Shown here: positions 17,397-52,214 of the stretch, in pieces
How positions within the stretch are numbered: the stretch's first letter is position 1
How the letters are laid out: the number at the start of each line of letters is the position of its first letter
Source of the DNA: Bacillota bacterium
GTDB lineage: Bacteria > Bacillota_I > Bacilli_A > ML615J-28 > CAG-698
Reading direction: 5' to 3'
Assembly (NCBI GenBank): GCA_016280895.1
Contig: JAEEHM010000063.1
Span: 5,392 to 69,391, forward strand
DNA: 64,000 nucleotides
Notes under the pieces: model-generated
What the model saw: only the letters and a program-made list of their open reading frames with translations
Told to the model about the DNA's origin: nothing
Databases searched by the model: none
Made by a program: the position numbers and the translations under genes

Positions 17397-17478
17397 ATTT
17401 AAGTAATATTATCCCTTTATAGGGGATACTTATTGTTTATCAATTAATACTTATTTTAATTGATTGTGGAGGAATTTT

Positions 17479-19176: not shown

Positions 19177-19182
19177 AGAACA

Positions 19183-19210
19183 AAGGGCAATGTAAATTGC
19201 CCTTTTATTA
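19183..19210 (+). terminator. Rho-independent terminator
   Basis: aagggcaat-gtaa-attgccctt followed by TTATT. Confidence 0.7.
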
Positions 19211-19228
19211 TAATTGAAAGGAGTTAAT

Positions 19229-21268: not shown

Positions 21269-21277
21269 GGAGTTTAT

Positions 21278-22312
21278 ATGACTGATACTACACGTATTAA
21301 ACTTGCTGTTGATGCTATGGGTGGAGATTTTGCCCCTAAAGAAATAGTTAAAGGCGTCAATTTAGCAATCAAAAACAATCCTAATTTAGAATTAGTATTA
21401 TATGGTGATGAAAGTCAAATAAAGGAATATTTAGAAGAAAATGAACGTGTTTCTATTGTTCATTGTAGTTCAAAATTAGATATGGGAGTTAAGGATCCTA
21501 TTAGAGAAATCAGAACAAACAAAGATTTATCACTTTCAAAAGCATTTCAAGCAGTTCATGATCACGAATGTGCTGGTGCTGTAACATGTGGCCCTACTCA
21601 AGGAGTTGTTGTAGCAGCTCATATGATTGTTAAAAAAGTGCCAGGAATGCAAAGAATTGCCTTGTGTCCAATTATGCCAGAATTTGGTGGAAAGAGTAGA
21701 TTACTATTAGATGTTGGTGCTAATGTTGAACTTAGACCTGAACATATTGTGCAAATAGCTCATTTTGCATCTGTTTATTTAAAGGAATCTAATGGAGTAG
21801 AAAATCCTTTAGTTGGTTTAGTAAACATTGGTTCTGAACCAGGTAAGGGAAGAGAAGTAGATAAAGAAACTTATGAAGCATTAAAGAATGATCCACAAAT
21901 TAATTTCTTCGGAAATATTGAACCAAAAGAAATGTTCTTTAGTGATTGTGATATTTTAGTAACTGATGGTTATTGTGGTAATCTTGTATTAAAAACATTA
22001 GAAGGTACTGCAAAAGCTGTTGGTAAAGAATTAGAGAAAGCAATTAAATCTTCATTTTGGTCTTCTTTAGGCTATGTATTATTTATGAAAGGTGCGATGA
22101 AGAAGTTCAAGAAAAAAGTATCTGGCGATGATGTCGGTGGTGCCTTATTATTTGGTGTCGATGGTGTTATTGTTAAGAGCCATGGTTCATCAAATGCATA
22201 TACTTTCAGCAAAGCTATTGAAAGATGTGCAATGGGTGTTCGCGGAAATTACGTTGAAGTCATGAAACAAAGACTTAGCGCAGAATCTTCTGATCAAAAT
22301 CAAGATAAATAA
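21278..22312 (+). CDS. plsX: Phosphate acyltransferase PlsX
   Basis: 'KLAVDAMGGDFAP' N-terminus; full-length PlsX. Confidence 0.9.
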   Translation: MTDTTRIKLAVDAMGGDFAPKEIVKGVNLAIKNNPNLELVLYGDESQIKEYLEENERVSIVHCSSKLDMGVKDPIREIRTNKDLSLSKAFQAVHDHECAGAVTCGPTQGVVVAAHMIVKKVPGMQRIALCPIMPEFGGKSRLLLDVGANVELRPEHIVQIAHFASVYLKESNGVENPLVGLVNIGSEPGKGREVDKETYEALKNDPQINFFGNIEPKEMFFSDCDILVTDGYCGNLVLKTLEGTAKAVGKELEKAIKSSFWSSLGYVLFMKGAMKKFKKKVSGDDVGGALLFGVDGVIVKSHGSSNAYTFSKAIERCAMGVRGNYVEVMKQRLSAESSDQNQDK

Positions 22313-23010
22313 TGAAGATAAGCGAAGAATTTAAAAATCAGTTTGATGTACTTGCAAAAAAACTACAAATAAGCTATAAGAATATCAATCTTTATTATGA
22401 AGCTTTTATTCATCCTTCTTACGCAAATGAGAAGAAATTAAATGTAGATTATGAAAGATTAGAATTCTTAGGAGATGCAATTCTTGACTTTTTAGTTGGA
22501 GAATATTTATACAAAACTTATAATTACAATGAAGGAAATATGACTAAGATTAGAGCGGAATATGTTTGTGAGCAAGCAAATTCCGAATACGCAATTGAGA
22601 TGGGTCTTAATGAACTCATCTTGGTTGGTAATGGGGCAAGAAAAGCAAATGAACATAAAAGAGATTCAGTTTTAGGAAATGTGTTTGAATCTTTTTTAGG
22701 TGCTTTATACTTAGATCATGATATGGATTATGTAAGAGAGATTCTAAAAATATGGGTATTTCCAAAAATCAAAGAATTGAAAAATGAATTCTTCATGGAT
22801 TATAAAACAAAATTACAAGAATACATGCAAGCTGAAAGGGGAGAAAATCCCACTTATGTAATTGTGAAAGAAAGTGGACCACCTCATGATAAAACATTTG
22901 AAGCTGTTGTAATGGCTGATAATGTGAAACTTGGAAGTGGTATTGGAAAGAAAAGAAAAGATGCGGAACAAGCAGCCGCAAAAGAAGCATTAGATAAACT
23001 CGCAAAATAA
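22312..23010 (+). CDS. rnc: Ribonuclease III
   Basis: 'ERLEFLGDAILD' catalytic signature plus a C-terminal dsRBD. 1-nt overlap (TAATG) with plsX. Confidence 0.9.
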   Translation: MKISEEFKNQFDVLAKKLQISYKNINLYYEAFIHPSYANEKKLNVDYERLEFLGDAILDFLVGEYLYKTYNYNEGNMTKIRAEYVCEQANSEYAIEMGLNELILVGNGARKANEHKRDSVLGNVFESFLGALYLDHDMDYVREILKIWVFPKIKELKNEFFMDYKTKLQEYMQAERGENPTYVIVKESGPPHDKTFEAVVMADNVKLGSGIGKKRKDAEQAAAKEALDKLAK

Positions 23011-23024
23011 TAAGAGGAGGGCAT

Positions 23025-23654
23025 ATGTCTCAATATTACACATTGCTGGTAAATGGCAAGTTAGATTTTGAAGAATTATTATTAGAAAAATATACTTTAA
23101 TAGGTTTAGATGAGGCAGAATGCATCCTACTTATTAAGCTAAAAAAGATATTAAAAGACAACAAGCACACAAATGAAGTTGCTTTAATTAAATCACTACA
23201 TGAAGAAATGACTTTATCAGAAAAAGACTTAAGTGAAAAAATATTGAAGCTAATTAATTCTGATTACATTACTCTTGATGAAGAAAATGAAGGCTTTACT
23301 TTAAATGGTACTTTTAAAAGACTTTCTTATTTATATGATAGTGAAGAAGAAAACACTAATAAAGAAGAGAATATCACTGATTTAAAAAAATGTGCTTCTT
23401 TAATTGAAAAAGAATGTGAACACTTATTAAGTCCTACTGAACTTGAAGTTATCAAACATTGGATAGAAGTGGACAAGTTCTCTTTTGATGAAATAAAAGA
23501 AGCGACATTAAATGCAGTAAGTCATAAGAAGAAAAGTGTTAAGTACATTGATGTCTTTTTAAACAAGGATAAAGAAAAGAAGATAAGCCCAAGCATCGGT
23601 GAAAACGATGAATTAAGTGAGCTTTTTAAATCAGCAATTTATGGAAAAAAATAA
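23025..23654 (+). CDS. DnaD-like replication initiation/primosome protein (tentative)
   Basis: An acidic 209-aa protein with C-terminal 'ELEVIKHWIEVDKFSFDEIKEATLNAVS' resembling the DnaD/DnaB_2 DDBH2 domain. Sits immediately upstream of nth, as dnaD does in B. subtilis. Confidence 0.45.
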   Translation: MSQYYTLLVNGKLDFEELLLEKYTLIGLDEAECILLIKLKKILKDNKHTNEVALIKSLHEEMTLSEKDLSEKILKLINSDYITLDEENEGFTLNGTFKRLSYLYDSEEENTNKEENITDLKKCASLIEKECEHLLSPTELEVIKHWIEVDKFSFDEIKEATLNAVSHKKKSVKYIDVFLNKDKEKKISPSIGENDELSELFKSAIYGKK

Positions 23655-24267
23655 AGCTTATGAAATCCTAAACAAGCTTAAAGAGATGTATCCAGATGCT
23701 AAATGTGAGCTTAATTATTCATCAGCATTTGAACTATTAGTTGCCGTTTCACTGTCAGCACAAACTACTGATAAAAGAGTAAATATGGTGACAGCTGAAT
23801 TGTTTAAAAGATACAAGGATGCCAGTGAACTAGCTGAGGCTAATTATTCAGATGTATATGAAATACTTAAAAGCTTAGGACTTGCGACAACAAAAAGCCA
23901 AAATCTTATCGCATTAAGTAAAAAACTAGTAGAAGTTTATAAAGGAAAAGTTCCTAGCACAAGAGATGAATTATGTACTCTTCCTGGTATTGGTAGAAAG
24001 AGCGCCAATGTAGTACTTTTAGAATATTTCAAAAAACCGGCTTTAGCTGTTGATACTCATGTTAAAAGATGCGCAAATCGACTGGGATTAAGTGAAGAAG
24101 ATGATGTTTTAAAAATAGAAAAGGATTTATGTTCTTTGTTTAATGAAGAAGATTATTATTCATTGCATCACTCTTTAATCTTTTTTGGAAGATATTTTTG
24201 TAAATCTGTAAATCCAGTTTGTGATAAATGTCCTTTCATTAATATTTGTAAAATAAAAAGACCTTGA
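23641..24267 (+). CDS. nth: Endonuclease III
   Basis: HhH-GPD 'LVAVSLSAQTTDKRVN'. [4Fe-4S] cluster 'CKSVNPVCDKCPFINIC'. Start set to ATG 23641 by N-terminal length comparison with Bacillus Nth; it overlaps the upstream gene by 14 nt. Confidence 0.9.
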   Translation: MEKNKAYEILNKLKEMYPDAKCELNYSSAFELLVAVSLSAQTTDKRVNMVTAELFKRYKDASELAEANYSDVYEILKSLGLATTKSQNLIALSKKLVEVYKGKVPSTRDELCTLPGIGRKSANVVLLEYFKKPALAVDTHVKRCANRLGLSEEDDVLKIEKDLCSLFNEEDYYSLHHSLIFFGRYFCKSVNPVCDKCPFINICKIKRP

Positions 24268-24282
24268 TAGGTCTTTTTCTTT
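24256..24282. terminator. Bidirectional terminator (nth + / rqcH -)
   Basis: aaaagacc-ttgata-ggtctttt hairpin; the nth stop lies in the loop. Confidence 0.6.
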
Positions 24283-25846
24283 ATGATAACTTTGCATGTT
24301 TATTAATATAATCAATTGATGGATCAGCATATGCAGTTTTTTCATGAGTATAGATTACATTAGAACCTAATTCTCCTTTTATTTTCTTTACCCATTTTAT
24401 TTGGGTGTAGTCAACACAGACATGAACTGATTCTCTTGCTTTAGAATAATATGCTGCAATATTAGCTGCTATTTGAATGCTTTTCTCATTTAATTGTCCA
24501 ACTAAGATAACATGAGAACCAGCTATGCTTTTAGCGTGGAACCAATAATCACCTTGATGCGCAAATTCATGAGTTAAATAATTATTTTGAACATTGTTTT
24601 TGCCGAAATAATAAATATTATTATCAGAATCTATATATTTAGCCAAATGAGGTTTTGTTTTCTTGGTAGCTGATTTTCTTAATCCTAATTCAATCATTAT
24701 TTCTTTTAAATCACCTATTTTAGAATAATCAAGATATGTGATATTATCACTATAATACTCTATTTGTTTCTCAGTTTCTTTTATTTGATTACCTAAATTA
24801 TCAATTGTTCGTTTGTTCTTTTTTATTTTATTATAATAAGCCTCAATATTCTCACTTGCTTTTAATTTTGGATTCAAAGGAATAGTGATATTTTCTTGAG
24901 TTTCATAATCTATTAAATCGATTTTATCAGTATATGGTTTAATTAAATAGAAATTAGCTTTTAATAAATTAGCATATTTTTCTAAAGTTTCATTGTTTTT
25001 CGCATTCTCTAATTCTATTTTTTGTTTTTCTAATTTGTTTTTGGCTTTTTCTAATTCTTTGTTTAAATATTTCTTTGTGTTAATTAAATCTTGACTTTCA
25101 CTTGTTTGTTTTTGAATATCCTCATAATAATATTCTAATAATTCAGAGAGGCTATTAAAATAAATCCTTTCTCCATATATTGTTTTTAAATCAGTGTAAT
25201 AAAAAATATATTTATCATTTTTTATTAATACTGGCTTTATTTCATATTTTAAGAAGGCATTAAGTCCAACTTCTCTAATTTCTTGGCTTGCTTGTTTTGA
25301 TAAACCTTGTAATAGTGAAGGATCAAGATTATCAGCTTGTTTATATGGATTTAATTTGTCATCCTTTAGTGCTTCGTATTTAATACCTGTTTTTATTAAA
25401 TGGGCATCAGTTAAATATGATTTTTTCACAGCTTCTAAAATGATATCATCATTATTAGTTACAATTAGATTGCTGTTTTTACCCATCAGTTCCAAATACA
25501 ATTTGTATTTAAGGACGTATCCTAAATCATCAATACCATCTAGGCTGATAATGACAAGTCGATCATTTTCAAATTGAGAAATATCAGTAATGACTGCCGA
25601 TTGTAGATGCTTTGAAAAATAATTTGCAAGAATCGCATTTGATGCTAAGAATTCCTTATCAGACATGCGAATATGTGCATGAGAAGGACTTACTGATATT
25701 AAAAATGTTTTTTTATTTGATAAATAAAAAGCATAATCAGTATCATTAATTGGAATGATTTTATGTATTTTCTTGCCTATAACATCATCTTTTATTTCAT
25801 TTATTAAATTGTGTAAGAATAAACCATCTAATGCCATATCTTTCAC
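24281..25846 (-). CDS. rqcH: Ribosome quality-control protein RqcH (FbpA/NFACT family)
   Basis: NFACT-N N-terminus 'MALDGLFLHNLINEI'. Central coiled coil. NFACT-R 'DYWFHAKSIAGSHVIL'. Confidence 0.7.
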   Translation of the reverse strand: MKDMALDGLFLHNLINEIKDDVIGKKIHKIIPINDTDYAFYLSNKKTFLISVSPSHAHIRMSDKEFLASNAILANYFSKHLQSAVITDISQFENDRLVIISLDGIDDLGYVLKYKLYLELMGKNSNLIVTNNDDIILEAVKKSYLTDAHLIKTGIKYEALKDDKLNPYKQADNLDPSLLQGLSKQASQEIREVGLNAFLKYEIKPVLIKNDKYIFYYTDLKTIYGERIYFNSLSELLEYYYEDIQKQTSESQDLINTKKYLNKELEKAKNKLEKQKIELENAKNNETLEKYANLLKANFYLIKPYTDKIDLIDYETQENITIPLNPKLKASENIEAYYNKIKKNKRTIDNLGNQIKETEKQIEYYSDNITYLDYSKIGDLKEIMIELGLRKSATKKTKPHLAKYIDSDNNIYYFGKNNVQNNYLTHEFAHQGDYWFHAKSIAGSHVILVGQLNEKSIQIAANIAAYYSKARESVHVCVDYTQIKWVKKIKGELGSNVIYTHEKTAYADPSIDYINKHAKLS

Positions 25847-25954
25847 CTTTTAAATTATTATAACATAGTTTTCATATTTTTTCACAAAAATATATTTTTT
25901 TCTTTTATTTTTTATTGCTTTGTAGTATAATATATGCAAGTAGGAGATAAGTGC

Positions 25955-26590
25955 ATGAAATTAGATAATAGAGGATTACTTATAGTTATTTCTGGACCAA
26001 GTGGTGTTGGAAAAGGAACTGTCCGTAAAGCGCTATTTGAAAGAAAAGGACATGATTTAGTATATTCTGTTTCTATGACAACTAGACAACCTCGTGCTGG
26101 TGAAGTAGAAGGAAAAGATTATTATTTTGTTTCAAAAGAAGAATTTGAAGAAAGAATTAAAGAAGGAAAATTTTTAGAGTACACAAAATTTGTAGGTAAT
26201 TATTATGGTACTCCTCTAGATCGAGTTGAAGAACAACTAGATTTAGGAAAAGAAGTAGTACTTGAAATAGAAGTTGAAGGGGCTAAGCAAGTAAGAAAGA
26301 AAATGAAAGATGCTATCTTTATTTTCATTGCTCCACCAACAATGGCTGATTTAAAAGCAAGACTTACAAGTAGAGGTACTGAAAGCGAAGAAATAATTAA
26401 AGAAAGATATCAAAAAGCATGTCGAGAAATCGGACTTGCATATTTGTATAATTACATTGTAGTAAATGATACAGTAGAAAATGCAGCTGATAAAATTATC
26501 GCTATTATCAGAAGTGAACATGCACGCACAATACGTAGTATTTCCGGATATAAGAAATTATTAGAGGAGGCAAATAATGAACATGACTAA
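25955..26590 (+). CDS. gmk: Guanylate kinase
   Basis: '[12 protein letters not shown]' P-loop. Start at ATG 25955, after AGGAGA. Confidence 0.9.
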
Positions 26591-39779: not shown

Positions 39780-40421
39780 TTATTGTTTTTTATATTTAAT
39801 TGCGTTTAAGATATTAAACACAATTGTAATTATTACTGTCACTAAAGCAACAATAATAAGTTTAATACTAAACTTATTTTCAAAAAGTACTGAAATAAAA
39901 CTAATTCCATAATTAAGGATAAATGCATAAAAGATAAATGCAAATATGATAATTGTACAAGCAAGAACTTTATTTAAAATTTTGTACTTGCTTAAATATA
40001 AAGCATAAAAGCTACCAATTGAGAAACATGCAATATGAATTAAGCCATTCACAATTAATAAAACTAATAATGAACTTGTTGCTACATATTGAACAATAGC
40101 ATTTTGTGCTATGAATAATAATTCAACAAAGCAAACATTTATTAGATTAAAGATTAATGATGATAGCCAGAATGTATGTTTATCATGCTTTAGTGAATCA
40201 TATGATCTACCTACTACAGTGAAATTATAATAACCATAGAAGAAGGAATATACAAATTCAATTAAGAAATATGATACAAAAGTTGTAATAACTAGAGCTC
40301 TAAAATCAGGAATTACTTTCGGAATAAGTTCTAATATTACACAAACTACACAAAATACTAAATTAAGTAGAAATGGTAATAGACAAGACTTCAATTGAAG
40401 TTTTATTGTTTGTAGTAACAT
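39780..40421 (-). CDS. Polytopic membrane protein (ABC-2-type permease-like, about 6 TM)
   Basis: 213 aa, highly hydrophobic. Its RBS AAAGGAGA is embedded in the last codons of the upstream ATPase-like gene, indicating translational coupling. Confidence 0.5.
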   Translation of the reverse strand: MLLQTIKLQLKSCLLPFLLNLVFCVVCVILELIPKVIPDFRALVITTFVSYFLIEFVYSFFYGYYNFTVVGRSYDSLKHDKHTFWLSSLIFNLINVCFVELLFIAQNAIVQYVATSSLLVLLIVNGLIHIACFSIGSFYALYLSKYKILNKVLACTIIIFAFIFYAFILNYGISFISVLFENKFSIKLIIVALVTVIITIVFNILNAIKYKKQ

Positions 40422-40422
40422 A

Positions 40423-41307
40423 TTACATTTTCTCCTTTATTTCTCTTAAATTGATTAAATAAATGAAGATGTTGTGAACAGGAACTTCAGATATTTTAAT
40501 TAAGTATTTTTGGAACTTTCTTATTTCGTCCTTTGAAAGCTTTTGGTGAACACAAACTGTTAATGTTTTTCCTCTTTCTTCAACTCCAAGCATTTTTACA
40601 CCTGCAAGTAAGGATTTTAATACTTCGGTTTTTCCACTTAGATAACGGAAATTTGCTTTTATTTCTTCCATTGTGAAATGTGCAAATAAACTTCCCTTAT
40701 CAAAGAATAATACTTTATCAATTAAATATGCGATTTCATCTACAAAAGTAGTAGAAATGATAAAAGTACGTGGATATATTTCATGATGCTTGTATAAGAA
40801 GTTAAAATAATCATATCTATCTTTAATATCAGCCTCAGATAGAGGATTCTCAAAGATAGTTACATTAGCTCTACTTGCAAGTCCTAAAATACCAATGAAG
40901 ATTGATTTTTTGGATTTATTTAAAGAACTATATGTAGTTTTTAATTCAATACCAAAATGTTTGATTAATTCATATGCATAAGCAGTATCCCATTTAGGAT
41001 AAAAATCAGACATAATCTTAAATATTTGGCTGATCTTCATAGTAAGTGGGAAGGTAGTATCTTTCGCAATAAAACAAATTCTTTCATTCATTTCATTGTT
41101 GCCGAAAAGAAGCTCTCCATCAATCCATACATTTCCTTCATCAGCCTTATTCTTAGCACAAATAAGATTTAGAAGTTCATGTTGATAATATTCATTCTTT
41201 TCAACAAGTGCATATATTTGATTATCTAAAAAATTGTAGGAAAAGTTTTTAATGATATTTTCGTTATTACTTTTTTTAACTAAGTTTTCGCAAATTAAAA
41301 CACTCAT
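40423..41307 (-). CDS. ABC-transporter ATP-binding-fold protein with degenerate Walker A, signature and Walker B (predicted non-catalytic)
   Basis: The ABC NBD collinear pattern is retained ('...WIDGELL...', 'LNKSKKSIFIGILGLASRANVTIFENPLSEAD'). The Walker A position reads 'EKNEYYQHE'. The LSGGQ position reads 'LNKSK'. The Walker B position reads 'IFENP'. Confidence 0.5.
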   Translation of the reverse strand: MSVLICENLVKKSNNENIIKNFSYNFLDNQIYALVEKNEYYQHELLNLICAKNKADEGNVWIDGELLFGNNEMNERICFIAKDTTFPLTMKISQIFKIMSDFYPKWDTAYAYELIKHFGIELKTTYSSLNKSKKSIFIGILGLASRANVTIFENPLSEADIKDRYDYFNFLYKHHEIYPRTFIISTTFVDEIAYLIDKVLFFDKGSLFAHFTMEEIKANFRYLSGKTEVLKSLLAGVKMLGVEERGKTLTVCVHQKLSKDEIRKFQKYLIKISEVPVHNIFIYLINLREIKEKM

Positions 41308-41403: not shown

Positions 41404-41997
41404 TTATTCTTTTATTTTTATGCTACCCTTTGTTGCTTTAACGAGTTCATTTTTAATATCATCGTATAAATTCTCTTGAATTTCATATGTAAAGAAGGCT
41501 TTATCAGTAAATTCTTTATTTATCTCTTTAAACCTTTCCATTATTTTCATACATTCATTTATATAATTATATTCACAATAAAAGCTAATATTAGTCATTT
41601 TTTCAATCTTTATCTTTTCGATGATATTAATTACATCACTGGCAGCTTTTGAATATGCTCTAACAAGACCATTAGCACCTAATTTAATACCACCGAAATA
41701 TCTAGTAACGACACATAGCACATTTACAAGCTCATTTTTGCATAAAACATCATAGATGACAATACCTGCTGTTTTACTAGGTTCACCATCATCAGAATAT
41801 TTGATTATATCTATATCATTATCCTTGATGATATATGAGTAACAATTATGAGTAGCATCATAATATTTTTTTCTAATTTCCTTTAATGCTTCTTTGCATT
41901 CATCTAAAGAAGATATTGGAATTAGAGTTGTTATGAATCTACTTTTTTTAATTTCATATTCAATTGTGTAGCTTTTATTAATAGTGTATGCAGTCAT
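41404..41997 (-). CDS. yigZ: IMPACT-family protein YigZ
   Basis: UPF0029 motifs 'IKKSRFI', 'ATHNCYSYI', 'GEPSKTAG', 'VVTRYFGGIKLG'. Confidence 0.8.
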   Translation of the reverse strand: MTAYTINKSYTIEYEIKKSRFITTLIPISSLDECKEALKEIRKKYYDATHNCYSYIIKDNDIDIIKYSDDGEPSKTAGIVIYDVLCKNELVNVLCVVTRYFGGIKLGANGLVRAYSKAASDVINIIEKIKIEKMTNISFYCEYNYINECMKIMERFKEINKEFTDKAFFTYEIQENLYDDIKNELVKATKGSIKIKE

Positions 41998-42123: not shown

Positions 42124-43737
42124 ATGCAAAGCGTTTATTTAAGTAAGGGAAGAGAATTATTGAAATTATTGATTAATAATGGCTTTGAAGGATATTTTGT
42201 TGGTGAATGTGTTCGTAATACAATTATGAACATTGATTTTTCACGTGCAGATATTGTAACAAACGCAAGTATTGATGACTTAAAAAGGATTAATAATTAT
42301 ATCTTTAATGATAGTGCTACATATATTGACTCTAACACAATTAAGGTTGTTTATAATGATTATGATTTTTATTTTAAATCATTTTCTTCACTTGATAATC
42401 AAATGAGTGATAATCGTACTAAGTTAACAAAGCATTATTCTAGTAATCTATTAGATGAACTTGCAACACGTGATTTTACGATTGATGCTATTGCGATGAG
42501 TTATAGTGGTAAGGTAACAGATGCATATAATGGTGTAGATGATATAAAAGCAAAACGTATTAGAACTATTTCTAATCCAAAGATTAGATTTAATAATTAT
42601 CCACTTGAAATATTAGAAGCAATAAAATTAGTTGGTGAATTAAAATTCCAAGTATCTGATAAGACTTATCAAGCAATGGTTAAAAAATCAAAGCTTTTAA
42701 TTAGCCAAAATAAAGAAGAAATATTTAATTACATGGATAGTATTTTACATGCTAAATACACTAAAAAAGCTATGGCTTATTTAATGAGTAGAGGCATATA
42801 TAAAAATATTCCTTCTCTTGATAAGGGTATAAAAGCAATCTCAAGGTCAAATAAAGATATTAGTATTGAAGAATTGTTGCTTGCAAGCTTTGTGTTAAAT
42901 GGTGAAATTGATAATGATTATTTAACATATATTGAAGATAGAGAAATATTTGAAGAAATCTTTAATTTAGCTCTTGCCCAAAAGAAGGGTATATATGAAC
43001 CATTCACACTATTTAAGAATGGTGAAAATGTTGCAACTGAAGCTAATTTCATCAATTATTTAATTGGTCGTGACCATATTAGAGCGAAAGCTATTAGTAA
43101 AGATTATAATGAACTTAAGATTAAATCATATGATGATTTAGCTTATGATATTAATGATGTTTGTAGAATCACAAATTTAGATCAAGAAAATGACGCAATT
43201 AAAGAAATAATTGATAATGTTGTGTTAAATATATTAAGTGAAACATTAAGAAATGATCATGATGAAATTGAAAGATTCATTTTAAAAGAACTAACTACTA
43301 AGGGTATTTATTTCGATATTGAAAGAAAAGAAGAAAAAGAAGTAGTAAAAAGAGATGATGATGAAGTAATTCAATCGAGTATCAATGCTGATTACACACC
43401 ATCATATAATTTAAGTGATGATGAAATGGCTATTTCTGAATCAATGAAGGAAGATGAAAGTGATCCTGATGCTGATTTAACTAATCATCGTCTAAGGATA
43501 TTAGAAGAAAGATTAGATGAACAAGATCGCTTACTTCAAGAAAAGACAGAAAGATTACAAGAATTAGAGAATCAAAAGATATTAGAAAGTACCCAAAAAT
43601 TAGTTAATGCTGGTTTGGATGCAATTAAGCATGATAGTCAATTAGCATCAATGATTAAAAATGTGGATGAATTCGAATTAGAATATCGTAATTTTGTTGT
43701 TGAATATTTAGAAAAGGAAAAGATGAATAATGAATAA
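42124..43737 (+). CDS. CCA-adding-enzyme/poly(A)-polymerase head-domain protein with a degenerate catalytic motif and a long coiled-coil C-terminal extension
   Basis: 'GYFVGECVRNTIMNIDFSRADIVT' versus the canonical 'FVGGAVRD....GDVDIAT'. The 'RDFTIDAIAM' motif is retained. 'TFRTE' reads 'KSFSS'. About 250 extra C-terminal residues with acidic coiled-coil character. Confidence 0.6.
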   Translation: MQSVYLSKGRELLKLLINNGFEGYFVGECVRNTIMNIDFSRADIVTNASIDDLKRINNYIFNDSATYIDSNTIKVVYNDYDFYFKSFSSLDNQMSDNRTKLTKHYSSNLLDELATRDFTIDAIAMSYSGKVTDAYNGVDDIKAKRIRTISNPKIRFNNYPLEILEAIKLVGELKFQVSDKTYQAMVKKSKLLISQNKEEIFNYMDSILHAKYTKKAMAYLMSRGIYKNIPSLDKGIKAISRSNKDISIEELLLASFVLNGEIDNDYLTYIEDREIFEEIFNLALAQKKGIYEPFTLFKNGENVATEANFINYLIGRDHIRAKAISKDYNELKIKSYDDLAYDINDVCRITNLDQENDAIKEIIDNVVLNILSETLRNDHDEIERFILKELTTKGIYFDIERKEEKEVVKRDDDEVIQSSINADYTPSYNLSDDEMAISESMKEDESDPDADLTNHRLRILEERLDEQDRLLQEKTERLQELENQKILESTQKLVNAGLDAIKHDSQLASMIKNVDEFELEYRNFVVEYLEKEKMNNE

Positions 43738-44683
43738 TAATCTAAAAAAAATACAAGATTGTCAAGCTTTAGAAGAAGTAACATTAGTACTACGACTTTC
43801 TGATGTCCAAATTAAGAAGACTAATACTAATGTAGATTATGCAAGTATGATTGCGTATGATGGTAGTGATAAAATAGAAGCAAAAATTTGGAAGTTCACT
43901 GATGATATGCGTGAAAAATTAAAAAGCGGTGAAGTCTATGTAGTGAATGGAAGAATGAAGGATTATCAAGGAAAATTGCAACTGAATATCACTGATATTC
44001 GCCAAGTGGATGGTAGCGATGATGTTAATTTAGATGATTTTTATGATAAAGCAAAGCTATCAAGAGAAGAATTAGCTAATAGAATTAATGATTATTACGC
44101 TAAGATCCAAAATGATTATTTAAAGAATATCACTAGTGTTTTATTGAAAAGACATTTTAAGAATTTCTTTGATTATCCTGCAGCTGTAACAATGCATCAT
44201 AATTATTATCAAGGACTTGCATATCATACATATTCAATGTTGAAATTAAGTGATGCATTTATTGAACTTTATCCATTTATTAATAAAGATTTAATTTATA
44301 GTGGAATCATTTTACATGATTTAGGTAAGATTATGGAACTCAGTGGCCCTAAGGGCACTGAATATACAAAGGCAGGAAAGCTTCTTGGTCACATTTCAAT
44401 TGGTGCTAATGAAGTTTATGCTACTGCCTGTGAGCTTGGAATAGAAAAGACAGAAGAGGTATTGAATTTACTTCATATCATCTTGTCTCACCATGGTGAA
44501 TTAGAATATGGTTCACCTAAACAGCCAGCAACTGTTGAGGCTGAAGTTGTTCATTTGTTGGACTTCTGTGATTCACGTATGGCCTCTTTAGAGCCGGAAA
44601 TTTTGAAGGCTAAGAAGGGTGAATATACTGGTCCATTGTCTGCATTTGAACGTCGCAATTTCTATATTCCCGATATTGATTAA
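43730..44683 (+). CDS. yhaM: 3'-5' exoribonuclease YhaM (OB-fold + HD domain)
   Basis: N-terminal OB fold. HD domain 'ILHDLGKI', 'ILSHHGELEYGSPKQPATVEAEVVHLLD'. 8-nt overlap with the upstream gene. Confidence 0.8.
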   Translation: MNNNLKKIQDCQALEEVTLVLRLSDVQIKKTNTNVDYASMIAYDGSDKIEAKIWKFTDDMREKLKSGEVYVVNGRMKDYQGKLQLNITDIRQVDGSDDVNLDDFYDKAKLSREELANRINDYYAKIQNDYLKNITSVLLKRHFKNFFDYPAAVTMHHNYYQGLAYHTYSMLKLSDAFIELYPFINKDLIYSGIILHDLGKIMELSGPKGTEYTKAGKLLGHISIGANEVYATACELGIEKTEEVLNLLHIILSHHGELEYGSPKQPATVEAEVVHLLDFCDSRMASLEPEILKAKKGEYTGPLSAFERRNFYIPDID

Positions 44684-44822
44684 AAAAAGTATAAATAATT
44701 ATTAAAAAAATGCTAATTTTGTCGCAAAATAATTAAAATAATGATTGAAAAAAAAGCAATTTTTATGTATAATATATATGTTGACAAAAAAATACGTTAT
44801 ATAATTTTAAGGAGAGATAAAG

Positions 44823-47800
44823 ATGAAAAGTAAAATATTATTGAAACGTACTTTGCCTATTATTATCGCATTATTTGTGATAGTAGTGGTAGCCCTTGTA
44901 GCTACAGTGGTAACTTTAGATAAAAAGACACCTAGCTTATCAAAGGCATTAGGAGAAGAAAACTATTTAACATACACAAATAATGGTGTTACTATCTCCA
45001 TGACAAATAATGATGTATATGACTTATTACGTGATACAAGTTATGGTGCATCATCAACTGTCACTCAATTAGTTCGTATGATCGATGAAGGTCTATTAAC
45101 TAATGGAGAAAAGAATTATTTAAATTCTGTTGATAATGAAAAGGTAAGAGAAAGACTTGAATATGCAATTCTTGGCTATGAATTTGCTGATTATCAAAAA
45201 GCAAATAAAACAAGCTTTGAACTTGCAGCTAAAAAAGCAAACAAGACATTCGATGAATATCTTGCTGACAAAATTGCAGATCTTATCAAAGAATTTAGTG
45301 ATAATTTCTTAACTGCAAATGGTATCAAAGTAGAAGCTGACGATATTACATTCGATAGCACTAAGATTACTTGCAAAACTACTGCTGATGTTTTTAAATA
45401 TTATGCATTAGAAGAAGCTAAATATTTATATGCTAGAGATTATTTAGAAAAGACATATTCTGAAGATTTAAAAGCATATGCTGAATATTTAGAAGCTAAA
45501 GAAGCATATGATAAATATACAGCTGCTCTTGCTAGATATGAAGCTGACTTAGCTAAATGGAAGGAAGCAAACAAAAAGACTCGTGGTGATAAACCAGTTA
45601 AGAATGATTACATTTCTTTATACACTGTAAGAGAAGAACCAAAAGAAGTTAGTGCTCCTGCTATTACTGAAACTACAGTTTCTAACAAATATGCTAGCAA
45701 CAATGTAGATAAATTCTGGGCTGTTGTTATTAATTATTCTTCAGTAGCTGCTGCTAAAACAGCATTAAGTCAAAATGGTTATATCTTTGAAGATAATAAA
45801 TTTAAAACAAGTGCTGGTGTAGAATTAACAGATGATGAAGTAGTTCAAATGTACATTAAGCTTTATAATCAATATTATCAAAACTTAGGTAAAGATGCAT
45901 TAACTACTGCTGCATTCACTCCTGATTGGACTGATGAAGATAGTGAATTCTATTTCACTGCATCTGATTTATTATCTCGTGGTATTTACTCTAAGAATTC
46001 TACTAACAATGTGTATAATTATGAAAGTGGTTATGCTTATAATGACAAATTAACTTCTTGCTTATACTTAGTTGTTGCTAGAAATAAGGCTAATACTTGG
46101 GATGAATATCTAAAAGCACAAGATAAGAAATATTATGAAACTGAATTTTATACTTCAGTACTTGCTGAATTATTAGATGATGCTACAAATGCAACATTTA
46201 TTAACAAAGCACTTGCTACTTTAAGAGCAGATTCTGATTTATTAATTTATGATACAGTTTTAGAACAACTTTATATGGCTGCATATGAATCAGATTATAA
46301 AGCTACTAAGAAGTCTTCTTCAAGTGCTGTTGCATCTTATAAGGTAAATGGTAAGAAGTATGAAATTAGTGCTGATGATTTGTTCAAAGCACTTGCTAAT
46401 ACACAATATGGCGTTTCATCTTTCATGTATAAATATCAATACAATTGGATGTTCTTAGAAGCTACTGATAAAGATGGTAACTTATTAAATAAATATGTTG
46501 ATTATAAAGCATATTTAGAAGGCACATCATACAAGAAAGCATCTAAGGATGAAACAATGTATAAAGATGCTAAAGCATATGTTGACAACTTAAAGACTAA
46601 CTTCAAGGCTAATGCTTATGCTAATGAAGATGGTTCTGGTTACAACAAGAAATATGGTTGGGAAGCATTCATTCGTGATTATTATTATGATAATTACAAT
46701 GTTGAATTAAAGAATGAAGATGATTTAATGGTCTTCTATGTATATCAAAAATTAATGGATGAATACCAAGCATCAGTTACAAAGATTACTTTAGATACAT
46801 GGGAAAATGTATATAAGATTTATATGGCTAAAACTGCTAGTGAATACATGAGTATTTCAGCAGAAGAATTATACATCAAATTATTTGATGCTAAAGGTAG
46901 TAAGGTTGATCCTATTAATTGGACAGCTGAACAAGTTGCAAAAGCAAAAGCTTTATATGATGAAGTATTATCTGCATTAACAAAGATTCAAGAAAGTGAA
47001 ATTTCTGCTTTCTTAAGCGGTTTGGAAACTGCATTTGATAATGCTCCTAAGGCTATTGATGGTGCTTACACTGGTGATTATGCATACAATTATGTTTATA
47101 ATGTAGGCGATGGAACACAAATTACAATCAATGTTTCTGAATATAAATCATATGGCTTTGATGTAACATCTACATCTGCAACATTCACTAATACAAGCGG
47201 TGATGCTTACTTAAAATATGCTGCACGTCAAGTTTGGAAGAGCTTAATGGGCGAATTAATTAATGGTAAAGCTGTATCTGAACTTGTTGTTTATGATACA
47301 ACATTCACTCCAAAAGATTATTATGGCATTGGTAATGGTAATTACTTAGCTGCTTCTGAAGGTTTCGTAGTATTAGCATTTACAAGTGCAAACTACTCTT
47401 CATATTTCAAGACAGTTGGTACAACATCAGCTTCATCTGAAGCAAAGACGAGAATCCATGCTTTAATGGCTTCTTATGAAGAATTACATGCTGGTGATGC
47501 TGGCTTTGAATCATTCGAAAAATTATATGCTGAATGGGTTAAGGCTGATGATAAGACTGCTAGTGAAGCTAAGATTTTAGATGTATTTAAGACTAAATTA
47601 GCTCTTGATGATGTAAGTGCATTTACAGATGTTGAAGATTTCTTCACTACATATGTAAATGATAGAATCGCATTTATTGCATTCCCTGAACTTCAATATG
47701 TATTAATGTATCTATACGATCAATCAAAGAAAAACGAAGATGATTATGTATCACTTAGTGATTTATATAGTGATTATAAAGATGCACTAAAAGATAATGA

Positions 47801-48422
47801 AGGCTTAGATGCTGCAAAAGAAGCAATTATGAAGATTGTTGATAAATATATTAATGATTCTTCATTAAATGTTGAATTCCCAACATTTGATGCATTCTTA
47901 CCTTACTTAAAGAATTATGCTGATTCTGATACATCTGCTTATTATAAAGCAAGTGTAACAAATTGGTTCACAACTTATTCTTCAAGTAATTCTACATTAG
48001 TTTATGGCAATTTTGCATCAACAACTTATGCTAATAGAGAAATGTTTAAGACATTACTTGCTAACTTAAATGCTAATTTCCAAGCAAGTGAAACAGTTAA
48101 AGATGTTATGAATAAATTAGTTGAAACATCAATTGATAATGCTACAAGTTCATTAACTTATTTAGCATTCACAAATGGTGATAAAGCTGCAGTTGAAAGC
48201 TTATTAAATGCCGTTCTTGCAATTAAAGATTTCGACTTAAGCGATGAAAATGTATTAGATGTATTATTTACTTATGGTAATGAGTACAGTGCTGAAAAAA
48301 CAACTTTCACAGCAGTTATGGGTGCTTTAAGCACATATGCAAAAGCTCAATATAATGCTTTAAATGCAGAAGATAAAGCAGAACTTGCTGATCTTGCTAC
48401 AGCTGCTGGTTTAGTTGATTAA
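44823..48422 (+). CDS. Giant (1199 aa) N-terminally membrane-anchored extracytoplasmic protein, paralog 1; SurA_N/PpiD-like region after the TM. Function unknown.
   Basis: Short cytoplasmic N-terminus, one TM ('LPIIIALFVIVVVALVATVVTL'), then 'NGVTISMTNNDVYDLLRDTSYGASSTVTQLVRMIDEGLL' (SurA_N-like). Ala/Tyr/Lys/Asp-rich. RBS AAGGAGAG. Confidence 0.7.
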   Translation: MKSKILLKRTLPIIIALFVIVVVALVATVVTLDKKTPSLSKALGEENYLTYTNNGVTISMTNNDVYDLLRDTSYGASSTVTQLVRMIDEGLLTNGEKNYLNSVDNEKVRERLEYAILGYEFADYQKANKTSFELAAKKANKTFDEYLADKIADLIKEFSDNFLTANGIKVEADDITFDSTKITCKTTADVFKYYALEEAKYLYARDYLEKTYSEDLKAYAEYLEAKEAYDKYTAALARYEADLAKWKEANKKTRGDKPVKNDYISLYTVREEPKEVSAPAITETTVSNKYASNNVDKFWAVVINYSSVAAAKTALSQNGYIFEDNKFKTSAGVELTDDEVVQMYIKLYNQYYQNLGKDALTTAAFTPDWTDEDSEFYFTASDLLSRGIYSKNSTNNVYNYESGYAYNDKLTSCLYLVVARNKANTWDEYLKAQDKKYYETEFYTSVLAELLDDATNATFINKALATLRADSDLLIYDTVLEQLYMAAYESDYKATKKSSSSAVASYKVNGKKYEISADDLFKALANTQYGVSSFMYKYQYNWMFLEATDKDGNLLNKYVDYKAYLEGTSYKKASKDETMYKDAKAYVDNLKTNFKANAYANEDGSGYNKKYGWEAFIRDYYYDNYNVELKNEDDLMVFYVYQKLMDEYQASVTKITLDTWENVYKIYMAKTASEYMSISAEELYIKLFDAKGSKVDPINWTAEQVAKAKALYDEVLSALTKIQESEISAFLSGLETAFDNAPKAIDGAYTGDYAYNYVYNVGDGTQITINVSEYKSYGFDVTSTSATFTNTSGDAYLKYAARQVWKSLMGELINGKAVSELVVYDTTFTPKDYYGIGNGNYLAASEGFVVLAFTSANYSSYFKTVGTTSASSEAKTRIHALMASYEELHAGDAGFESFEKLYAEWVKADDKTASEAKILDVFKTKLALDDVSAFTDVEDFFTTYVNDRIAFIAFPELQYVLMYLYDQSKKNEDDYVSLSDLYSDYKDALKDNEGLDAAKEAIMKIVDKYINDSSLNVEFPTFDAFLPYLKNYADSDTSAYYKASVTNWFTTYSSSNSTLVYGNFASTTYANREMFKTLLANLNANFQASETVKDVMNKLVETSIDNATSSLTYLAFTNGDKAAVESLLNAVLAIKDFDLSDENVLDVLFTYGNEYSAEKTTFTAVMGALSTYAKAQYNALNAEDKAELADLATAAGLVD

Positions 48423-48434
48423 GGAGTGATAGAT

Positions 48435-51400
48435 ATGAATAGTAAATCAATATTTAAACGTATCTTACCAATATTAATTGCATTAGTAGTCATTTTAATT
48501 GCTGCTATCGTTGGCGCAATTGTGACTAGTGCTAAGAAAGTACCTGGCTTTTCTGATAAAACTTATGGTAAAGAAGCATTCATTACATATACAACAGCTG
48601 ATGGAACTGAAATTAAATTAAGTAGAAATGAAGTATATAATGCTTTAAGAGGAACATCTTCTGAACAAAGTGTTATTACAAGTACTACTGTAAATGAAAT
48701 TCTTAATTTAGTTGATGCTGATTTACTTGCTGATTATGTAAGCAATGTTAATGAAAATGATGTATTTGAATTAATCGCAAAAGCTGTTTTCTCTTCTACA
48801 TTAGATTCTTATATCAAAACAAATGAAGATACTTTCAAAGTAGAAGCACATAAAGAGGGCAAAGCATACCGTACATATCTAAACGAAAAGATTGATGAAA
48901 AAATCAAAGAATTCGTAGATTCATTAAAATATAGCTATGGTTTCGAAGGTGCTGTATCTGAATTCTCTTATAAGAATGATAGTAATGAATATTATTATGT
49001 TCAAGAAAATGGTGCAGATAAATTAGATGATGATGGTGAAAAGATTTACCAATTAAAGGTAGCTACAAATTCTAAGGTTTATGCTTATTATGCATTAGAA
49101 CAAGCTAGAACTGATTATGCTAAAAAATTAATCAAAGAAGAATATGAAGAAGATTTCAAAGCTTATCTTCAATATTTAGAAGATTTAGAAGCATACAATG
49201 ATTATCTAGAAGCAGTTAGTGATTATGAAGAAGCTTTAGCTGATTGGAAGAACACTAAGGATGGTTCAAAACCTAAGAAGAGTGATTACTACACAAGCAA
49301 GGTAAGTGAACCTGCAGTAGTTGAAGAACCTTTAAATGGTGCTTTAGATGAAGATGCAATCAAAAAGCTTTATGAAGAAGATAATTATGCTAAATTCTGG
49401 GCAATTATCACAAGCTTTGATTCACAAGCAAAAGCTGAAGAAGCATTATTACAATATGGTGTTGTAATTGCTGAAAATGCTAGTGGTGATAATAGATGGT
49501 TCCACTATGGTGTAACAGATTTTGCTGGTGCTAGTGCTGAAGATAAAGCATTAATCGCTGCTTATAATTTCACTACTAAGGGTGATACTACTGTCATTAC
49601 TGATGATGATTATTATAATTTATTAACTACAGATGAAGAATTATACAACAAAGATGCTGCTAAAACTTCAACTGAAAAGACTGGTTTAGTTCTTGCAACA
49701 AAGGAAAACCCAGATTCAAGAACTGGTGCTTATGAATTAACAGAAGCAGAAGTTAAGGATATTATTGTTAAATTATATAATCAAAATAATCAATATGATG
49801 CAAGCAAACAATTAACAAATGCTGATTATGATCCAAGTGCAACTGATGCCACTTATGATGAAAATAGTAAGTTATATTACACTGAATCTAAATTAACATC
49901 ATTAGGTTTATATTCTAAGGGAACAAGCTCTAATAAATTCTATAAATTCTCTGATTCTTCAACATTTGAAAATGCTGAAATTTACACAAATGCTATTATT
50001 TCATCTAACAGCAAATATTATATCTATTTAATTTTAGATAAAAAAGATGATGTTGAAGATTGGGATGATTATCTAGATGGTAAGAAGTATTATGAATCTC
50101 AAATTTACCTTGATAATAAAGATGAATTATTAGAAGATCAAGCTACTGCTACTTATACTAAGAAAGCTATTGCTAAATTAAGATTAGCAAACAACATCAA
50201 ATTCTATGATGAAATCTTAGAAGCTAATTATATGGCTAATTATACTTCTGATTATAAAGCTAATAAGAAGTCAAGCAAGACTGTTTTAGCTTCATATGAA
50301 GTAAATGGTACTAAGAAAGAAATCACAGTTGATGCTTTATGGGCTAAACTTGCTCCTTATTATGGAGTTTATGCTACAGTTGACCTAATCCAATATGAAT
50401 GGGTATTCTTAGAAGCAGCTGATGCTGATGGTAAATTATTCAATCAATATGTTGATTATAATAAATATTTAAGTGGTAAGAAGTTATCTAAGTGCATTTT
50501 AGATAATGACAAAGCTAAGAAGATGTATGAAAATGTTAGCAATTATGTTGAAAACGTTAAGTACTATTTCTCAGTTGGTTATTATGAATCATATGGATAT
50601 CCAAGTTCATATGGTTGGAAGAACTTCATTAATGATTATTATGCAACATATTATAATGTAAGATTAAATAATGTAGATGATTTAAAATTATTCTTCATTA
50701 ATCAACAAATCATTACTGAATATAGTAACTATGTTTCTAAAGTTACAGCTGAAAATTGGGAAAAAGCTTATTTAACATATGCTGGTAAGACATTAAGTGA
50801 ATATATCAATACAAAAGGTATTCATTTATTAATCTCTCTTCCAGATGTTGAAAAGAACGAAAAGAACAATTCAAGTTCTAACTTCTTAGATCCTACTAAA
50901 TGGACTGATGCACAACTTGCTGCTGCAGAAGAATTATATGATGCAGTTCTTGCATTACTTGCACAAGTTGATGAAAGTGAAATTTCAACAGTATTAAATG
51001 GAATTGTTACTGCATTTGATAATGCTCCACTTCCACTTACTGATGGCACTACTCCAAATATAAGCTATACTAAGGAAACATTAGGCGGAACTGAAGTTGT
51101 TGATTATCTATTTGATTATAAATATGAATACTATAAAGATGGTGCTCTTGCTCCACTTGCAAGTATTGATGTTGCTAAATATAAAGCAATGGGCTTCAAA
51201 TTAACTTGTGAAGATTTAACAGTTACAACTGGTACAATGGTTTCAGAATTTGAAGATGCTGTTCGTCAAATTTGGAATAGTCAATTAGATAAATTAGTTG
51301 TTGATGGAAGCAATAGTGATGTTGTTATCTATGATCATACATTTACAGCTCCTGAATACAAGAACTATAATGAAGAAACAAGTGCTGAATCTGTTGTTAA

Positions 51401-52214
51401 CAACAATGGTACTAATACATATTTAGCTACTACATTTGGTCTTCATGTATACGTAAATCAATCTTCTGATTTAAGTGCTTACTTTACTACAAATGCTGAT
51501 GGTGATAAGGTATTTACTGAAATTCCTGACATCAAATATGTTCAAATGTATGTATATGATAAGAACGAAGCAAATGAAGAAGATTATGTAGCACTTGCAA
51601 CTTTATATAAAGATTATAAAGAAGCAAAAGAAGATAATGATGAAAAGAGAACTGCTGACTTAAAAGCAAAGATTGAAGCAGCAAATGAAAAATTAGGCTT
51701 TGGCTTATCATTTGATGAATTCTATGCTTTACTTGAAGAATATGCTGGCGATAATGCAAGCTATGTTAGCACTCAACTTTCAACATACTTCACAGTTTAT
51801 AGCCAAGCATCACAAACTTCAAATGCAAGTTATTCAATGGTATTTGGTGATTATGTAAGCTCTACATATTATCATTTATGTTACATGAGTGACTTCTTAG
51901 ATAAGATTAATGCTTCTAAAGTTAGCCTTGCTGATGGTGATGAATTCAAGTCATTACTTAAAGATTATGTTGGCTACTTCAAAGATACATATTATAAATC
52001 ATTTGCGTCAGCAAATTATTTAGATGGTAACGCTGAAGGCTTAGAAGGATTATTAGATGCTTTAGCATGTGTTAAGGGCGTAACAGCTTATGACAATGTG
52101 GCAGGAAGCGCTATGACTGCACTTAAGAATTTTGCAACTAGTGCATACAATGCATTATCAGCTGAAGATCAAGCTAAGTTAGATGCAAAAGCTACTGCTG
52201 CAGGAATTAAATAA
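48435..52214 (+). CDS. Giant (about 1259 aa) N-terminally membrane-anchored extracytoplasmic protein, paralog 2
   Basis: Collinear homology with the upstream gene, for example 'KFWAIITSFDSQAKAEEAL' vs 'KFWAVVINYSSVAAAKTAL', and 'YTSDYKANKKSSKTVLASYEVNGTKKEITVDAL' vs 'YESDYKATKKSSSSAVASYKVNGKKYEISADDL'. Start at ATG 48435, 8 nt after AAGGAG. Confidence 0.7.
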   Translation: MNSKSIFKRILPILIALVVILIAAIVGAIVTSAKKVPGFSDKTYGKEAFITYTTADGTEIKLSRNEVYNALRGTSSEQSVITSTTVNEILNLVDADLLADYVSNVNENDVFELIAKAVFSSTLDSYIKTNEDTFKVEAHKEGKAYRTYLNEKIDEKIKEFVDSLKYSYGFEGAVSEFSYKNDSNEYYYVQENGADKLDDDGEKIYQLKVATNSKVYAYYALEQARTDYAKKLIKEEYEEDFKAYLQYLEDLEAYNDYLEAVSDYEEALADWKNTKDGSKPKKSDYYTSKVSEPAVVEEPLNGALDEDAIKKLYEEDNYAKFWAIITSFDSQAKAEEALLQYGVVIAENASGDNRWFHYGVTDFAGASAEDKALIAAYNFTTKGDTTVITDDDYYNLLTTDEELYNKDAAKTSTEKTGLVLATKENPDSRTGAYELTEAEVKDIIVKLYNQNNQYDASKQLTNADYDPSATDATYDENSKLYYTESKLTSLGLYSKGTSSNKFYKFSDSSTFENAEIYTNAIISSNSKYYIYLILDKKDDVEDWDDYLDGKKYYESQIYLDNKDELLEDQATATYTKKAIAKLRLANNIKFYDEILEANYMANYTSDYKANKKSSKTVLASYEVNGTKKEITVDALWAKLAPYYGVYATVDLIQYEWVFLEAADADGKLFNQYVDYNKYLSGKKLSKCILDNDKAKKMYENVSNYVENVKYYFSVGYYESYGYPSSYGWKNFINDYYATYYNVRLNNVDDLKLFFINQQIITEYSNYVSKVTAENWEKAYLTYAGKTLSEYINTKGIHLLISLPDVEKNEKNNSSSNFLDPTKWTDAQLAAAEELYDAVLALLAQVDESEISTVLNGIVTAFDNAPLPLTDGTTPNISYTKETLGGTEVVDYLFDYKYEYYKDGALAPLASIDVAKYKAMGFKLTCEDLTVTTGTMVSEFEDAVRQIWNSQLDKLVVDGSNSDVVIYDHTFTAPEYKNYNEETSAESVVNNNGTNTYLATTFGLHVYVNQSSDLSAYFTTNADGDKVFTEIPDIKYVQMYVYDKNEANEEDYVALATLYKDYKEAKEDNDEKRTADLKAKIEAANEKLGFGLSFDEFYALLEEYAGDNASYVSTQLSTYFTVYSQASQTSNASYSMVFGDYVSSTYYHLCYMSDFLDKINASKVSLADGDEFKSLLKDYVGYFKDTYYKSFASANYLDGNAEGLEGLLDALACVKGVTAYDNVAGSAMTALKNFATSAYNALSAEDQAKLDAKATAAGIK

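Follow-up and report, generated by a model that had tools for sequence, protein, structure and literature searches.

A conserved CCA-enzyme homologue without its catalytic residues is co-encoded with the exonuclease gene yhaM in uncultured gut Bacilli

The window analysed here is a 64,000-nucleotide stretch of DNA from a Bacillota bacterium (GenBank assembly GCA_016280895.1, contig JAEEHM010000063.1, positions 5,392 to 69,391 of the forward strand), which has a GC content of ~28% and reads well under translation code 11. At 42124-43737 it encodes a homologue of the class-II CCA-adding enzymes, here called pseudo-CCA, whose gene overlaps and is transcribed together with yhaM, the gene at 43730-44683 for a 3'-5' exonuclease. 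We consider it highly probable that pseudo-CCA is a conserved, selected and catalytically dead derivative of cca, which arose in place and is co-encoded with yhaM. An initial annotation of this DNA had placed both open reading frames (ORFs) at these positions, where we also find them, and had called the upstream product a catalytically degenerate CCA-enzyme homologue, a description upheld by residue alignments and by the predicted fold. The 8-nt overlap between its stop and the yhaM start, at 43730-43737, is likewise real, with a Shine-Dalgarno-like run just upstream, and no terminator is seen in the sequence between the two genes. The features of the pair are as follows.

42124..43737, + strand: pseudo-CCA gene; 537 aa, class-II CCA-adding-enzyme fold without the catalytic residues, plus a C-terminal extension
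42124..42573, + strand: head domain (residues 1-150); degenerate motif A (G27-E28, N32, R41-A42-D43), Y83, T115-R116-D117, motif C kept
42574..43299, + strand: neck, body and tail (residues 151-392); motif D remnant R155-F156-N-N158-Y159-P-L-E162
43300..43464, + strand: acidic linker, predicted disordered (residues 393-447); short conserved motif [DE]EV[IL]xxxxN[AS]DY
43465..43734, + strand: C-terminal helical module (residues 448-537); a 56-residue helix and two short helices
43713..43737, + strand: coupling junction; Shine-Dalgarno-like run AAAGGAAAAG, then the 8-nt stop/start overlap ATGAATAA
43730..44683, + strand: yhaM; 317 aa, 3'-5' exonuclease with OB fold and HD domain, catalytic HD dyad intact

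The loss of the catalytic site was established residue by residue, using a HMMER alignment to the B. stearothermophilus enzyme (PDB 1MIV) which agrees with two MAFFT alignments that include intact CCA enzymes. The equivalences are given below with the 1MIV residue first and the window residue second.

G26-G27 to G27-E28: GG loop, triphosphate binding
D31 to N32: motif A
D40 to R41: metal-binding dyad
D42 to D43, kept: metal-binding dyad
E79 to Y83: third carboxylate
R110 to T115: motif B
E153, D154 and R157 to N158, Y159 and E162: motif D, the EDxxR nucleotide template

The degeneracy of motif A that was first annotated (G26-G27 replaced by G27-E28, and D40 by R41) is thus confirmed, and the damage exceeds the original list, as the third carboxylate and the entire motif D are lost too. 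In none of the alignments does a shifted register restore a DxD pair. Retained are motif C (D133, G137, D140) and, as annotated, the RDFTIDAIAM stretch, which corresponds to the RDFTINA core of motif B. In alignments of the whole family, down to 34% identity, all members have G[ED], VRN and [RK]x[DE] instead of GG and DxD, an aromatic or aliphatic residue at the E79 position, and no EDxxR template, while the first motif-B arginine (R110) is replaced across the family by T, S, N, C or L. E28 and D43 are invariant or nearly so, and position 38, five before D43, is mostly acidic and only partly conserved. Given the loss of metal-binding carboxylates, GG loop and EDxxR template together, pseudo-CCA should not add nucleotides, and judging from its sequence such activity is very unlikely.

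CCA-enzyme body and tail hold the acceptor and T-arm of tRNA, and the head pocket receives the 3' end. Pfam recognises the head of pseudo-CCA (PF01743 PolyA_pol, E 1.4e-15) and gives weak matches to PolyA_pol_RNAbd and tRNA_NucTran2_2, and the NCBIfam model PRK13299 ('CCA tRNA nucleotidyltransferase') aligns end to end at 168.7 bits, below its 290-bit equivalog cutoff. An AlphaFold2 (AF2) model built from an 87-sequence alignment has a mean predicted local distance difference test score (pLDDT) of 84, with residues 1-392 mostly above 90. Foldseek superimposes this model on 1MIV over 405 aligned columns (E 1.9e-20, template modelling score, TM, 0.73), and on 1MIV and the Planococcus enzyme 6Q52 taken together the matches span ~390-405 columns at E ~1e-20 with target TM 0.73-0.77. 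In the model, then, the head-neck-body-tail architecture of a class-II CCA enzyme is complete, and the tRNA-binding architecture is predicted to be retained. As residues 150-392 form a normal CCA-enzyme neck, body and tail by AF2 and by the Foldseek match to 1MIV, the C-terminal extension measures ~145 aa (residues 393-537) and not the ~250 aa proposed initially.

Pseudo-CCA belongs to a family of ~30 sequence clusters with an intact reading frame, found in uncultured low-GC Bacilli of gut and rumen. Protein searches returned 21 clusters of 520-556 aa, ranging from 99% to 37% identity and all carrying the extension, after which the next matches are intact 389-aa CCA enzymes at 27-29% identity; an exhaustive search with the C-terminal region added a few further members. 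When one genome per GTDB species was scanned, the family appeared in only six uncultured 'Bacilli bacterium' metagenome-assembled genomes (MAGs; JAZLLM01, CAKOMG01, CAZFAM01, CANQVC01, CANQVW01 and JAFSVH01, of which CAZFAM01 is recorded as 'Bacteroidales'); these come from gut or rumen samples of humans, rabbits, goats and other sources. The head has acquired invariant residues of its own, namely E28, a K-H-Y-S motif at residues 103-106, and AMSxSGKxTD, which implies a function that was retained but changed. In a comparison of the window with one 86%-identical relative, the ratio of nonsynonymous to synonymous substitution rates (dN/dS) of pseudo-CCA was 0.107 overall, 0.049 in the head, 0.22 in the linker, its least constrained part, and 0.098 in the C-terminal module, with 0.062 for YhaM. 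Pseudo-CCA is under strong purifying selection.

In all 11 independent family loci the gene order is yigZ/IMPACT (divergent), pseudo-CCA, yhaM and a giant anchored protein, and in 10 of these the pseudo-CCA and yhaM ORFs overlap by 1-26 nt, the two being 14 nt apart in the remaining one; the tight co-encoding that was noted at the outset holds. Sister lineages have an intact 389-aa cca at the equivalent locus, in the order DUF1146, yigZ (divergent), cca, pulA, yhaM (loci L036/L037 and L130). An Erysipelotrichales MAG has cca, a 676-aa gene and yhaM, and an Acholeplasmatales MAG has yigZ beside an intact cca (loci L017 and L019). Synteny with yigZ was seen at L001-L016, L017, L036 and L130, that is, beside pseudo-CCA genes as well as beside the intact cca of sister lineages. 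The best canonical matches to pseudo-CCA are these same sister-lineage enzymes (E 1e-35, vs 1e-23 for the next canonical match). From the shared locus and the best canonical matches together, pseudo-CCA appears to descend, in position, from the ancestral cca. The term paralog, used in the initial annotation, finds no support, as an intact cca occupies the same yigZ-cca-(pulA)-yhaM locus in sister lineages and is also the best canonical match. The cca-pulA-yhaM operon itself spans 2865-7045 in L036, with overlaps of 8 and 26 nt, and 4259-8184 in L130, with 8-nt overlaps; its pulA product has PulA_N1, CBM_48 and alpha-amylase domains, which makes for a conserved and odd mix of tRNA, glycan and RNA-decay genes.

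YhaM is implicated in mRNA 3' trimming, small RNA activation, ribosome stability and DNA uptake. The protein encoded downstream of pseudo-CCA, named YhaM in the initial annotation, is a normal though divergent YhaM: it is full-length, OB (Pfam 1.7e-8) and HD (1.8e-8) domains are both present, the 'ILHDLGK' motif is conserved, and PDB 9h3f is matched at E 1.8e-72, with YhaM structures solved for B. subtilis and S. aureus matched at ~1e-72. PRK13480 scores 317.9 bits, below its 460-bit equivalog cutoff, over residues 6-315 of 317, effectively the full length. Set against the known YhaM/Cbf1 proteins (PDB 9h3f, 9o7t), then, the gene product is an ordinary OB-plus-HD YhaM, and it is 63-92% identical across family loci. 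B. subtilis YhaM requires H193/D194 for activity, and the enzyme forms Mn/Mg-dependent hexamers in which the OB domain is required for substrate binding (PMC12107432). Searches of the literature named no protein that serves YhaM as a dedicated partner, nor did they connect YhaM with a CCA-enzyme homologue.

The extension is new to this family. Residues 404-447 of the linker are acidic and predicted to be disordered (AF2 pLDDT <50); the [DE]EV[IL]xxxxN[AS]DY motif is visible in the family alignment, and linker length and sequence vary between lineages. In the C-terminal module AF2 places helices at 448-503, 505-510 and 514-531. The first has leucines at 457, 464, 471 and 478, the spacing of a leucine zipper, and its region forms the longest run and densest block of invariant residues in the whole protein (L460, E461, R463, L464, Q467, L471, E473, K474, E480 and E482 across the family). 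The module has no homologue in Pfam or the PDB, and matches to L1 were at chance level only. Among 1.84 billion representative proteins, the C-terminal region recovered only 16 sequences, nearly all of them full-length family members or fragments. Two of the 16, P0144 and P0136, lie outside the family. P0144 is a 178-aa protein with an N-terminus that looks by eye like a helix-turn-helix (without a Pfam match) and a module-like C-terminus (E 8e-4), which suggests that the module can move between proteins as an oligomerisation or interaction domain. P0136 is a 356-aa TIR-domain protein, the last ~70 residues of which are nearly identical to the module of P0013-type pseudo-CCA; its gene lies on locus L129 (positions 1-1292; Joint Genome Institute contig Ga0451939_1094591, 1.3 kb) directly before yhaM, with the usual 14-nt overlap. 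This arrangement may be a true swap of the CCA-like body for a TIR domain, or a chimeric assembly.

What the protein does is a separate question, to which we give a tentative answer, short of an even chance and suggested by sequence and context: a non-catalytic tRNA 3'-end-binding subunit which acts with YhaM. Pseudo-CCA would still bind the tRNA acceptor and T-arm together with the 3' end, or tRNA-like 3' ends; it would probably dimerise through the leucine zipper, and would work with the hexameric YhaM exonuclease, the contact likely being the linker motif or the C-terminal module. It might present 3'-extended or damaged tRNAs to YhaM for trimming or, alternatively, cap the mature CCA end so that trimming by YhaM stops there. 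Such a partnership at tRNA ends is plausible because B. subtilis YhaM is among the exonucleases able to trim CCA-containing tRNA precursors. It is also consistent with L129, where the last ~70 residues of the module stay ahead of yhaM without the CCA-like body, a possible assembly artefact. The initial annotation had proposed a non-catalytic RNA 3'-end-binding partner of YhaM, and on fold and co-encoding this remains the best reading, with adjacency as weaker evidence than was then assumed. Several observations count against this account of a dead enzyme partnered with YhaM. cca and yhaM were already linked before catalysis was lost, so that operon membership and overlap are no proof of partnership; with the linkage ancestral, and the unrelated pulA sharing the operon of intact lineages, adjacency is only moderate evidence. 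The whole block of ~12 genes is syntenic across the family, and adjacency may just mirror conserved gene order. Pseudo-CCA also evolves much faster than YhaM (34-86% vs 63-92% identity across family loci), and E28, D43 and the mostly acidic position 38 might, with low probability, still form a metal site of non-canonical type.

The ancestral linkage and the synteny lend themselves to a role that is non-catalytic and independent of YhaM, in which the protein might chaperone or sequester tRNA, sense tRNA that is uncharged or damaged, or act as a scaffold, its adjacency to yhaM being inherited from cca-pulA-yhaM and mechanistically meaningless. We hold this to be rather doubtful, a step less credible than the partnership. 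Sister lineages with intact cca already carry it upstream of yhaM, with pulA between and 8-nt overlaps; the entire neighbourhood is syntenic; and yigZ/IMPACT, whose eukaryotic counterpart IMPACT is translation-related, is an equally conserved neighbour. Yet the loss of pulA put the two genes in direct overlap, which has been kept in 10 of 11 lineages, and at L129 the C-terminal module remains attached ahead of yhaM. A third role would make pseudo-CCA a regulator or inhibitor of YhaM, whose acidic linker would occupy the OB fold of YhaM in imitation of nucleic acid, the inactive CCA body serving as a tRNA-sensing switch. The linker is indeed strongly acidic and disordered, with a conserved short motif, substrate binding by YhaM depends on the OB domain (PMC12107432), and overlapping genes suggest matched expression, but this role is pure conjecture and the linker, varying in length and sequence, is under weaker constraint than any other part (dN/dS 0.22); we rate this role improbable.

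Whether the protein could still be a tRNA nucleotidyltransferase, and the only cca of its genome, turns on the catalytic residues and on the search for a second gene. With canonical CCA enzymes as tblastn queries, the window and all 130 fetched loci each yielded a single homologue, so that no second cca lies in the window or in any family locus. Nor was a second match to the pattern NNG[FY]E[GA][YF]F, which is carried by many related intact CCA enzymes, found in any of the six family-bearing GTDB MAGs, a scan whose patterns are biased towards the family and which a divergent cca could escape. Two low-GC canonical enzymes, P0057 and P0027, were considered as the lineage's own cca and rejected: they belong to unrelated lineages and lie in a cca-dnaD-nth arrangement, whereas the window has rnc-dnaD-nth without cca. 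The nulls for the window, the family loci and the MAGs favour an enzyme that remains active, as do the near-invariance of E28 and D43 and the strong constraint on the head domain, a non-canonical site (E28 with D43 and D38, for example) then taking over. Against this, two of the three catalytic carboxylates are replaced (D40 by R or K, E79 by an aromatic residue), the GG loop, R110 and E153/D154/R157 are replaced in every member, a glutamate in the GG loop should repel triphosphate, and the NCBIfam score falls far under the equivalog cutoff. We therefore regard continued activity as highly improbable. Were pseudo-CCA the sole homologue, its lack of the entire catalytic set would still argue for a lineage without CCA addition rather than for activity. 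That the gene is a decaying duplicate or pseudogene of cca, the alternative raised in the initial annotation, is refuted. Its sole support is the loss of catalytic residues and an evolution faster than that of YhaM, but the frame is intact in ~30 clusters, dN/dS is 0.11 (0.05 in the head), and identical derived substitutions, with a conserved new C-terminal module, recur across lineages at 34-90% identity.

A bolder extension of the partnership with YhaM, which we consider unlikely, is that active CCA-adding enzymes are absent altogether from an order-level lineage of gut Bacilli. The one ancestral cca would have been converted in place into a dead, dimeric tRNA-binding subunit which guides or limits YhaM at tRNA 3' ends, and CCA would be encoded in all tRNA genes. 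Neither the window nor any family locus contains a tRNA gene, and the ~10 kb past the 3' end of the window that a strain-level relative (L039) supplies has none either; no Rfam family reached its gathering threshold in the window or in those ~10 kb. The sole tRNA from a metagenome scan seeded with the first window gene lay on a 52%-GC contig (L050) of another lineage and was discarded.

Compared with the class-II CCA-adding enzymes (1MIV, 6Q52, PRK13299), pseudo-CCA shares the four-domain fold over ~390 residues, motif C, the RDFTINA core and the locus, and differs in having lost D40, E79, the GG loop, R110 and EDxxR, in its score (169 bits vs the 290-bit cutoff) and in the 145-aa extension; by sequence it is not a functional member of that family. 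The split CC-adding and A-adding enzymes and PcnB (poly(A) polymerase I) are, like pseudo-CCA, offshoots of the class-II scaffold through changes to head and neck, but they kept the catalytic carboxylates which pseudo-CCA lost, and are still polymerases. In eukaryotes, the RNase-PH-like ring of the exosome and the pseudo-nucleotidyltransferase folds of NF45/NF90 are inert homologues serving RNA binding or scaffolding. By analogy the logic may be common, an enzyme fold being used to bind or scaffold RNA while another subunit performs catalysis, but folds and lineage are unrelated to those of pseudo-CCA, and the pseudo-CCA/YhaM complex is putative.

Other features of the neighbourhood are listed here.

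41404..41997, - strand: yigZ / IMPACT-family gene, divergent upstream neighbour; Pfam UPF0029/Impact_N 1.3e-37, NCBIfam IMPACT_YIGZ 162 bits
42061..42123, + strand: likely promoter and ribosome-binding site of the operon; extended -10 TGTATAAT, GGAGG 8 nt before the ATG
44823..52214, + strand: two tandem giant proteins (44823-48422 and 48426-52214), family unassigned; 1199 and 1262 aa, both membrane-anchored at the N-terminus

The extended -10 and GGAGG were read by eye as the likely operon promoter and ribosome-binding site, and do not appear in the list from a consensus promoter scan. The giant proteins have no Pfam, NCBIfam or PADLOC match; they are paralogous, and every family locus has one or two copies shortly after yhaM. 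A promoter-like site at 44745-44773, after yhaM and ahead of their genes, indicates that the pair probably has its own promoter, and its membership in the pseudo-CCA/yhaM unit is uncertain. At 40423-41307 (- strand) lies a 294-aa degenerate ABC-ATPase homologue (PDB 4yer 1e-6; NCBIfam PmtA 52 bits vs a 350-bit cutoff; no Pfam ABC_tran match). Its conservation among family loci is 64-74%, and a 213-aa multi-pass membrane protein at 39780-40421 (- strand) forms a pair with it. The expected Walker-A stretch of the ATPase homologue apparently reads 'EKNEYYQHE', by eye and without a residue alignment, and the homologue may be a second pseudoenzyme of the neighbourhood. The TIR fusion at L129 raised the possibility of anti-phage defence, which was rejected: PADLOC matched neither pseudo-CCA nor yigZ, nor the giant proteins or the ABC-like pair, and for YhaM gave no more than generic Cas3-HD similarity. 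Further upstream, a housekeeping block at 17464-26590 comprises fakA, recG, plsX, rnc, dnaD, nth, rqcH (NFACT, minus strand) and gmk. Directly upstream of dnaD-nth, where the window has rnc, an intact cca is present at L038 and L125, from two further low-GC lineages of Bacilli. A 1027-aa protein at 524-3607 (+ strand) combines sensor repeats (Reg_prop/Y_Y_Y) with an HD_5 domain of HD-GYP type, and its closest full-length relatives, which include one on the 52%-GC contig L050, hint at horizontal spread of this gene.

To our knowledge, the prevailing view is that CCA-adding enzymes occur almost universally and are catalytic without exception, and full-text searches of the literature returned no description of a bacterial CCA enzyme that has lost catalysis in this way. 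A conserved, selected and dead derivative would be a clear bacterial case in which the CCA-enzyme scaffold is reused purely for RNA recognition. How surprising it is will be decided by the existence of an intact cca elsewhere in family genomes. Its position at the ancestral cca locus raises the question of whether a free-living or gut bacterium can live without CCA addition. If the bolder reading is true, this lineage would be one of a small number of bacteria that neither add nor repair CCA, and it would trim or survey tRNA 3' ends with a new two-protein machine. If pseudo-CCA is partnered with YhaM, it would be the first dedicated specificity factor for a poorly understood exonuclease, and would suggest how exonucleolytic maturation of tRNA 3' ends becomes precise in reduced Gram-positive genomes.

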